Program-made: the position numbers and the translations under genes
Source of the DNA: a virus
Taxonomy: Duplodnaviria > Heunggongvirae > Uroviricota > Caudoviricetes
Virus record (IMG/VR): IMGVR_UViG_3300028886_000075
DNA: 64,000 bases
Direction: 5' to 3' (one strand)
Notes under the pieces: model-generated
What the model was told of the DNA's origin: nothing
The model's input: only the letters and a program-made list of their open reading frames with translations
Database searches by the model: none
Shown: piece after piece, positions 54,344-55,020 of the stretch
Numbering within the stretch: position 1 is the first letter of the stretch
Layout of the letters: each line of letters opens with the position of its first letter

Positions 54344-54836
54344 TTTATTTGATTCTAAATGTCAGACATTAGTTAATACTGTTAATTGTAATGGCATTAT
54401 GGGTAAAGGTATAGCATTACAATTTAAACAAAATTACCCAAGTATGTTTAATGAATATAAAAGAGTATGTTCAGGAAAATCATATAATGGTATTGGTAAA
54501 TTAAAAAATGGGGGTGATCTTTGGTTATATACATATATAGATTTATATAAAGAACGTAATATATTGTGTTTTGCTACAAAAGAAAATTGGTGGAATAAAT
54601 CAAAATTAGAATATATTGAACGAGGATTAAAAACATTAACGCAACATTTTGAATTTGAAGATACCTATGATACACCAGGACAATCATTTTACTTCTATGA
54701 AAAATTAAAAATCAAAAGTATTGCATGGCCTAAACTTGGTTGTACAAATGGTGGATTAAACTGGGAAGAACAAGTAAAACCACTTATGATAAAATATTTA
54801 GGTGATATAGATATTATAAATGAAATATATGAGTAA
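54321..54836 (+). CDS. macro domain (ADP-ribose binding/processing) protein
   Basis: [32 protein letters not shown] parallels the macro-domain N-terminal motif (GDIT...VNAANxxLxGGGGV.GAI). [12 protein letters not shown] parallels the AFPAISTG(V/I)YG distal motif. Confidence 0.65.
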   Translation: [171 protein letters not shown]

Positions 54837-55020
54837 GAAATTAGTAAAAGGAAACGATTTTGGAGAATCAAAATTATGTGGTGTGTGTTGTGGATTATCA
54901 GAGTATTTTGGAATTGATGTAACAATACTTCGATTTATATGGGTGATAGCAGTTCTATTTTATGGAATAGGATTGATTCCATATATAATTTTAGCAATTA
55001 TAATGCCGGATAAAGAATGA
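54820..55020 (+). CDS. PspC-domain small membrane protein
   Basis: KLCGVCCGLSEYFGIDVTILRFIWVIAVLFYGIGLIPYIILAIIMP closely follows the PspC domain (GVCAGIANYFDVPVKLVRILVVL...YIIL). Confidence 0.7.
   Translation: MKYMSKKLVKGNDFGESKLCGVCCGLSEYFGIDVTILRFIWVIAVLFYGIGLIPYIILAIIMPDKE

Follow-up and report, generated by a model that had tools for sequence, protein, structure and literature searches.

The 64,000-nucleotide stretch of viral DNA analysed here (IMG/VR record IMGVR_UViG_3300028886_000075, referred to below as the window) carries, on its plus strand, a small gene for a stand-alone PspC-domain protein, which lies directly behind a gene for a DarG-type macrodomain protein (macro gene). Sequence comparisons indicated that this PspC open reading frame (ORF) is genuine and under purifying selection rather than a chance ORF. 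Its product belongs to a known protein family and does not represent a new kind of system. The phage protein is tentatively interpreted as a host-derived mimic of small PspC-domain proteins, which may tune the handling of membrane stress by the host during infection.

An ORF of 66 amino acids (aa; 54820..55020, +) that overlaps the 3' end of ORF 54321..54836 was present, as described in the initial annotation, and its translation matched the Pfam PspC family (PF04024) with a score of 70 bits against a cut-off of 25 (E 1.4e-19, profile positions 10-57 of 58). This match and the predicted transmembrane (TM) helix discussed below bore out the earlier description of a phage-borne, near-consensus PspC-domain membrane mini-protein. 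The proposed start of the gene inside the 3' end of the macro gene was upheld in part: the overlap stood, and the start at 54820 gave way to an ATG at 54829 as the likelier one. The ATG at 54820 is due to a synonymous AAT/AAC change in an Asn codon of the macro frame, and the equivalent codon in four relatives (L001-L004) is ACG. Each of the nine junctions inspected (the window, L001-L007, and L091) had an ATG equivalent to that at 54829 and kept the 8-nucleotide (nt) overlap with the macro stop codon, ATGA(G/A)TAA; gene calls in L115-L118 gave an identical 8-nt overlap of the two genes. Since the ATG at 54829 is conserved, that at 54820 is not, and most of the 88 homologues described below are 60-65 aa long, comparison of these sequences indicated that translation likely starts at 54829 and yields a product of 63 aa.

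The overlap of the macro and PspC genes had initially been taken to imply translational coupling. Overlaps were found at 17 of the 73 same-strand gene junctions in the window and are therefore routine, so that the macro/PspC overlap represents ordinary compact packing. Shine-Dalgarno (SD) cores were detected upstream of 1 of 81 genes (whole window), against a background of 6.7%, and the macro gene is kept with other downstream genes in some relatives. These results lent no support to coupling or to the view that the overlap is of particular significance.

Homologues of the PspC protein numbered 88 in a search of 5.8 billion proteins; every one was a PspC-domain protein of 55-74 aa, with 50-97% identity. 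In an alignment of 29 homologues (66-aa numbering), residues G21, V22, C23, G25, F30, D33, V34, and T35, as well as Y55, I57, L58, A59, I61, M62, P63, and K65, were invariant, and R38, which corresponds to R35 of the 63-aa form, was nearly so. Ratios of dN/dS, calculated according to Nei-Gojobori for a gap-free core of 43 codons and for all pairs of six phage copies, ranged from 0.05 to 0.49. The number of homologues and these ratios argue against a chance ORF. Between the window and related loci, PspC showed 70-82% identity, against 42-60% for the macro protein, 50-55% for a downstream 120-aa protein (tblastn, L001-L007 and L091), and 45-56% for a 375-aa protein, which, by these sequence identities, makes PspC the best-conserved gene of its neighbourhood.

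The 63-aa protein has a basic N-terminus (K3, K4, and K7), and its C-terminus extends four residues, PDKE, past the TM helix. Mean Kyte-Doolittle hydropathy was 1.2 for the first predicted helix (residues 15-34; best 19-residue window 1.48) and 2.5 for the second (residues 36-59). An AlphaFold2 model built from the family alignment placed helices at residues 18-30, 34-48, and 52-61 (66-aa numbering). The PspC domain has been described as a weakly hydrophobic, "cryptic" first helix, a conserved arginine, and a true TM helix, with the arginine between the two helices as its hallmark (PMC11237479, Ravi et al. 2024). As judged from sequence and model, the phage protein matches this published architecture. 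The presence of a TM helix, on which the earlier reading of the gene had been made to depend, was thus predicted for residues 36-59. No solved PspC-domain structure was detectable in a PDB profile search with the family alignment, and a Foldseek search of the model, which is of moderate confidence, against the viral structures of BFVD gave no match at E <=0.001.

An exhaustive HMMER search of 1.84 billion cluster representatives yielded 6492 proteins at E <=0.001 and 386 at E <=1e-10. The phage clade was represented there by two clusters (77% and 65% identity), and the other top matches, many of them tandem two-domain proteins, were 37-56% identical. When one genome per GTDB species was considered, the closest cellular relatives were stand-alone mini-proteins with 41-56% identity, from Lachnospiraceae, Oscillospiraceae, other Bacillota, Bacteroidales, Sphingobacteriia, and other groups. 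One homologue from a metagenome (53% identity) adjoins a hybrid two-component regulator (Reg_prop, Y_Y_Y, HTH_AraC), an architecture that we take to be typical of Bacteroidota. The phage gene appears to have been captured from a cell; the matches extend over several phyla, and a 60-aa domain offers too little resolution to name the donor.

Among 144 immediate neighbours of cellular mini-PspC genes, only LiaF-TM (5), Toastrack DUF4097 (4), LiaI-LiaF-like_TM1 (4), and LiaF-like_C (3) recurred, in line with the published links of PspC to Toastrack/LiaF modules (PMC11237479, PMC9239133). The 25 commonest Pfam families of these 144 neighbours included neither Macro nor any lysis family, and tblastn detected no relative of the window macro protein in cellular PspC loci L008-L087. 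Partner families of PspC (LiaF-TM, Toastrack, PspA, PspB, and histidine kinases) were absent from the Pfam lists of the window, as well as from the gene tables of related phage loci. Location in an operon with, or fusion to, partners of the LiaF-TM type is typical of the PspC family but not obligatory, and most cellular mini-PspC loci are without them.

Among 50,697 deposited phage records, tblastn with PspC gave five weak matches, to four unannotated Listeria "phage" records (2.9-29 kb) and one faecal contig, all of them putative phages, and PHROGs contained no family for the PspC ORF. An exact-peptide scan of IMG/VR with the single PspC protein returned nothing, and an alignment-based scan returned one clade member (L091) and about 20 other contigs with PspC mini-proteins. 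In two of the latter (L092 and L103), PspC is surrounded by divergent RecA-like, DnaB-like, and ribonucleotide reductase genes, a replication-type module; the viral nature of both contigs is read from the IMG/VR label and these divergent replication genes. Unrelated huge phages, viral by that label, may have captured PspC mini-genes independently and recurrently. Contigs L105, L106, L109, L110, and L111 represent another PspC lineage, in which the L105 group matches deposited phages through tRNA genes only. In contigs L095 (640 kb) and L102 (676 kb), the neighbours of PspC include an M42 aminopeptidase, a GMP reductase, and a PAS hybrid histidine kinase; these two contigs are probably cellular sequence or the host flanks of a provirus.

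Gene order around PspC was identical in the window and in 12/12 PspC-bearing related loci (L001-L007, L091, and L115-L118), where the macro gene is followed by PspC, a soluble ORF of 41-43 aa, a protein of 111-126 aa, further genes, and a sigma-like gene product of ~405 aa. In a 378-kb relative (L120, L121), the macro gene (56% identity) is instead followed by genes for an 85-aa acidic soluble protein, a homologue of the 120-aa protein (30% identity in L120), a methyltransferase, and the sigma-like protein, and in L119 a WDGH-domain protein takes the post-macro position. No PspC was found within 4 kb of the macro gene in L119 or in L120/L121. Since the macro gene is kept with other downstream genes in these relatives, its pairing with PspC is not obligatory: the macro gene is conserved, the slot behind it varies, and PspC is one of its accessory occupants. 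Synteny around the slot is maintained whether it holds PspC, the 85-aa acidic protein, or the WDGH protein, which suggests a hot spot of accessory or anti-defence genes.

PspC lies in a long co-directional, non-structural array with sigma-like and topoisomerase genes and in no lysis or virion module, and no plus-strand terminator-like sites were found between 52 and 58 kb. Its neighbourhood would be one of early host takeover, the timing of expression being read from the neighbouring genes. Divergent sigma-70-like proteins (phrog_351) are encoded at 37731..38894 (+) and 57541..58758 (+); the gene at 57541..58758, downstream of PspC, was syntenic in all relatives examined, and one ORF of the 32-64 kb set matched Pfam Sigma70_r2 (E 1.2e-05).

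In the preferred interpretation, the phage PspC protein would insert into the host cytoplasmic membrane during infection, mimic the host's own small PspC-domain proteins, and engage their membrane partners, which may be stress modules of the LiaF/Toastrack type or lipid-remodelling enzymes. Such engagement would tune or pre-empt the envelope-stress response of the host and keep its membrane functional through a long infection. The gene lies beside a likely counter-defence gene, the DarG-type macrodomain, and the window also encodes a flotillin-like protein, of a class tied to Psp networks in Bacillus subtilis (PMC9239133). Small PspC-domain proteins that act through membrane partners have precedents: in Enterococcus faecalis, LiaY mediates phospholipid-microdomain remodelling with Cls1 (PMC11601895), the YvlC/YvlB/PspA network of Bacillus subtilis includes the flotillin-family adaptor YdjI (PMC9239133), and hosts have been found to induce psp genes upon phage infection (PMC8125068). 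Several points weigh against this interpretation. The mechanism is read from homology and genomic context, and the host itself is placed by inference. The AlphaFold2 model of the phage protein is only moderately confident (pLDDT 65.8). Cellular mini-PspC genes are mostly orphans, with 196 Pfam families among the 144 neighbours and only about five LiaF/Toastrack loci, and their function is poorly defined. PspC is, moreover, dispensable, as sister phages have no PspC after the macro gene. Expression timing is deduced from gene neighbours, and a sigma-70 promoter scan of the 52-58 kb region gave signals at background level.

An alternative with a different target is that PspC counters membrane-acting abortive-infection effectors, either by stabilising the membrane or by blocking TM effectors, as part of an anti-defence cluster with the macrodomain. 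Its location directly after a DarG-type macrodomain without a recognisable toxin partner, the variable occupancy of the post-macro slot, and the strong conservation of this accessory gene wherever it is present are in keeping with such a role, and a variable slot is a pattern seen in anti-defence loci. However, PspC showed no match in PADLOC and no known anti-defence homologue, and we know of no defence system that is countered by a PspC domain. This explanation, which was considered unlikely, also overlaps with the preferred one and differs from it in target only.

A second alternative, related to the antiholin-like lysis timer proposed in the initial annotation, is that PspC is a lysis regulator of the holin, pinholin-like, or antiholin type, whose first helix would flip with membrane energisation and thereby time lysis. 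The combination of small size, one strong TM helix, and a weakly hydrophobic helix rich in Gly, Cys, and Ser is consistent with this idea, and the first transmembrane domain (TMD1) of pinholins is signal-anchor-release (SAR)-like, of which the first helix of the phage PspC is reminiscent. In E. faecalis, liaY overlaps the holin-like liaZ and LiaY may modulate LiaZ (PMC11601895), while PCP of Streptococcus mutans affects the release of extracellular DNA and autolysis (PMC7906467). However, all window ORFs of at least 50 aa were scanned against Pfam or PHROGs (the two complete Pfam lists comprised 14 and 13 families), and none of them gave a match to a Pfam family of lysozymes, amidases, endolysin-type peptidases, or holins. 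No endolysin or holin was flagged beside PspC in the gene tables of the 12 related loci, in all of which its neighbours were the macro gene, small soluble ORFs, and a sigma-like gene. The linkage to holin or endolysin genes for which related phages were to be searched was thus not found, a result close to the uniform association with unrelated functions that had been named as evidence against the earlier reading.

Other features of the locus also argue against lysis timing. About five membrane proteins were predicted in the window (7607..8164, 8405..10498, 36959..37477 (-), PspC, and 56712..56972), and no hydrophobic segment was present in the downstream ORFs 55017..55148 and 55099..55230 or in the 120-aa protein, which leaves no LiaZ-type overlapping holin-like gene. 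Past its TM helix, PspC has only PDKE as a C-terminal tail, all ancestral PspC hallmarks are kept under purifying selection, the neighbours are of an early/middle type (DarG-like macro, sigma-like, and topoisomerase II genes), and PspC is missing at this position in some sister phages. A role in lysis timing was therefore judged somewhat less probable still than counter-defence.

Superinfection is excluded by some small membrane proteins made early in infection, T4 Imm among them, and PspC, as one of so few predicted membrane proteins in the window and encoded in a non-structural, probably early gene array, might similarly act at the inner membrane to block DNA entry of competing phages. To our knowledge, the known exclusion proteins are not PspC-domain proteins, and the retained ancestral PspC motifs argue for an ancestral interaction rather than a new one. 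Superinfection exclusion was accordingly regarded as improbable.

PspC might also tether the DarG-type macrodomain to the membrane or regulate it there, a conserved coupling of translation setting the stoichiometry of the two proteins. The invariant macro-PspC order (window and 12/12 loci) and the 8-nt overlap in 9/9 junctions and in L115-L118 would fit such a partnership. Against it, the macro gene has other genes behind it in some relatives, the WDGH gene of L119 overlaps it by the same 8 nt, overlaps are generic in the window, and the cellular PspC loci mentioned above lack a macro relative. A Macro-PspC fusion was likewise absent, the best 120 of 350 macro homologues all being single-domain proteins, and a partnership was rated as decidedly improbable. 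That PspC is a neutral passenger or a spurious ORF, as its absence at this position from some sister phages might suggest, is very improbable, since it is the best-conserved gene locally, has dN/dS ratios well below 1, counts 88 homologues, and keeps its synteny in every related locus examined.

Table 1. Location of PspC, its predicted structural elements, and other genes discussed in the text. Positions refer to the window unless preceded by a contig label.
Feature	Position	Strand	Remarks
Stand-alone PspC-domain mini-protein, likely coding sequence, 63 aa (MSKKLVKGND...IIMPDKE)	54829..55020	+	Pfam, conserved ATG, homologues, dN/dS
Alternative PspC start (66-aa form)	54820	+	Not conserved
8-nt overlap ATGAGTAA	54829..54836	+	PspC start codon over last macro codons and stop
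Weakly hydrophobic first helix ("cryptic TM"), residues 15-34 of 63-aa form (predicted)	54871..54930	+	GVCxG...YF..D motif
Conserved Arg codon, R35 of 63-aa form	54931..54933	+	Between the two hydrophobic helices
Strong TM helix, residues 36-59 of 63-aa form (predicted)	54934..55005	+	Kink at YGIGLIP
DarG-type macrodomain protein, 171 aa, without the DarG C-terminal half	54321..54836	+	Pfam, NCBIfam, PADLOC, PDB
Conserved 43-aa soluble ORF (MKNLLKKI...LQAMYYSINKLK)	55099..55230	+	Counterpart of the 41-42-aa post-PspC ORF of relatives
Conserved 120-aa protein of unassigned function	55236..55598	+	Syntenic in all relatives, also those without PspC
185-aa protein with two TM helices	7607..8164	+	Just upstream of the flotillin-like gene
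Flotillin-like SPFH/Band_7 protein, 697 aa, N-terminal TM helix	8405..10498	+	Flotillin-2 (9bq2), E 5e-20
85-aa acidic soluble protein	L120:4477-4734		In post-macro slot
WDGH-domain protein	L119:4467-4874		In post-macro slot; 8-nt overlap with macro gene
59-aa PspC mini-protein, contig of 411 kb	L092:10001-10180		Directly after 5'-3' exonuclease
59-aa PspC mini-protein, contig of 245 kb	L103:9959-10138		Directly after 5'-3' exonuclease

The macro protein encoded upstream of PspC matched the Pfam Macro family (PF01661; E 2.2e-11), the NCBIfam model antitoxin_DarG (E 2.6e-45; 155 bits against a cut-off of 250; best stretch 1-103 of 338), and the PADLOC model for DarG (E 1.3e-46; best stretch positions 1-100 of 329). 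Its best PDB matches were 5m3i and 5m31 (E 1e-23), which we take to be DarG macrodomains. The full definition of DarG, which comprises a macrodomain, a C-terminal DarT-binding half, and an adjacent darT, does not apply to this protein, and no DarT-like partner was recognised among the macro neighbours with Pfam or PADLOC. DarTG is an anti-phage system that ADP-ribosylates DNA, and the lone phage macrodomain is therefore a plausible counter-defence enzyme against DNA ADP-ribosylation by DarT. Single Pfam matches to CTP_transf_like, HIGH_NTase1, Citrate_ly_lig, and Pribosyltran were obtained among the ORFs of the set covering 32294..63870, and these may form a nucleotide or NAD salvage pair. Possible NAD salvage genes are of interest beside an ADP-ribose-processing macrodomain, and "NAD-jumbo phages" have been published (PMC11662467).

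Downstream of PspC, the counterparts of the 43-aa soluble ORF in relatives read MFNWLRKI...LQAMIYSINKFK. A further 43-aa ORF (55017..55148, +), whose ATG overlaps the PspC stop codon and which itself overlaps 55099..55230, had no counterpart in relatives; by this comparison, it is specific to the window and may be spurious. PDB searches with the neighbours p375, p120, and p136 gave no match.

Products encoded in the window (G+C content ~25%) include a prohead protease, the major capsid protein, and a tail sheath of 1031 aa, as well as a helicase, MazG, topoisomerase II, and two sigma-like proteins. Its major capsid protein was 30-36% identical to those of Sphingomonas phage PAU, Tenacibaculum jumbo phages, Prevotella Lak megaphages, and a 462-kb uncultured phage, and the PspC-bearing relatives are contigs of ~360-475 kb (up to 474 kb) with a gene order as in the window. 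The carrier is an AT-rich huge gut phage, and PspC is held by a subclade. Regions upstream of the window genes are A/T-rich and, as stated above, nearly devoid of SD cores. Bacteroidota initiate translation in an SD-independent manner, and this trait and the relatives of the capsid protein point to a likely host among Bacteroidota; the hosts of the clade are probably Bacteroidota. A megablast search with 6 kb around PspC against deposited phages gave no match, and the terms PspC, macro, flotillin, and DarG were not found in the Jug-phage paper, which covers genomes of 360-402 kb with 27-30% G+C; those of these terms that were looked for in the NAD-jumbo-phage paper were likewise absent from it.

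At some distance from PspC, the window encodes a flotillin-like protein (Table 1). A Pfam Band_7 match (E 1.9e-21) was returned for the ORF set of the first 32 kb rather than for individual ORFs; it was assigned to 8405..10498 because this ORF matched flotillin-2 and no Band_7 was found in the other candidate ORFs. The protein is strongly conserved, with 710 homologues at E <=1e-20, the top 120 of which were 68-84% identical. A flotillin is unusual in a huge phage and may relate to membrane management. It is conceivable, if rather doubtful, that the clade carries a membrane-maintenance kit, in which the captured PspC and an SPFH scaffold would commandeer the Psp/Lia circuitry and keep the membrane energised; in that case, the "phage shock" response would be turned to the benefit of the phage in a long infection. 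In a single look-up of flotillin/PspC co-occurrence, the contigs returned were not the PspC-bearing ones.

Cell-surface-type repeat proteins typical of gut bacteria are also phage-encoded here. Three tandem DUF285 proteins occupy 3218..4917 (+), and two proteins of the 32-64 kb set matched the BspA-type LRR_5 family (best E 3.3e-94); the latter matches were assigned to 45858..47234 and 48844..51147 (+), because both of these ORFs share the same PHROG families.

PspC domains rank with the most widespread bacterial membrane-stress modules, of which the stand-alone mini-proteins are without a defined mechanism. Copies encoded by phages are very rare, as the searches of PHROGs and of deposited phage records showed. 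Maintenance of the phage gene under strong purifying selection suggests that management of host membrane stress matters for very large phages, and a phage protein of only 63 aa could serve as a minimal natural probe for the binding partners of PspC domains. The DarG-type macrodomain and the variable slot behind it may mark a counter-defence locus.

With respect to known systems, the phage protein resembles holins and antiholins (lambda S105/S107, the S21 pinholin, and T4 T/RI) in being a small membrane protein, and its weak-then-strong helix arrangement is superficially pinholin-like. It differs from them in the absence of a PHROG or BFVD match to viral proteins and of linkage to an endolysin, and its C-terminal tail consists of PDKE only. 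PspC of E. coli and Yersinia (TIGR02978, NF007973; 119-121 aa) has the same N-terminal membrane domain, to which the phage protein aligns over profile positions 10-61 of 121, and the phage protein scored below the equivalog cut-offs of these models (41.7 bits for a cut-off of 104 and 36.8 bits for one of 136, respectively). In E. coli and Yersinia, the PspBC sensor releases PspA-PspF, and the C-terminal half of PspC past the TM helix is the region that interacts with PspA. This half is missing in the phage protein, which therefore cannot regulate PspA as E. coli PspC does, and neither pspA nor pspB was found in the window; an E. coli-type orthologue and mechanism were thereby excluded.

LiaY of E. 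faecalis (107 aa, encoded in liaXYZ) is likewise a small PspC-domain membrane protein whose gene overlaps a neighbour, and it would act through partner proteins in the membrane (PMC11601895). It is longer, regulated by LiaFSR, and followed by the holin-like LiaZ, whereas the phage gene is followed by soluble ORFs in a locus without a LiaX- or LiaZ-like gene. Bacterial mini-PspC proteins such as B. subtilis YvlC (PF04024 only, ~50-70 aa) have the same single-domain architecture and length as the phage protein. In contrast to them, the phage protein is encoded by a huge phage, beside a DarG-type macrodomain and outside any yvlABCD-like, LiaF, or Toastrack neighbourhood, and the phage clade forms a tight cluster of its own with clade-specific KGDxFDS and MPDKD termini. 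Both the phage and the bacterial mini-proteins share the GVCxG motif, the YF pair, the aspartate, the conserved arginine, the strong TM helix, and the C-terminal proline.

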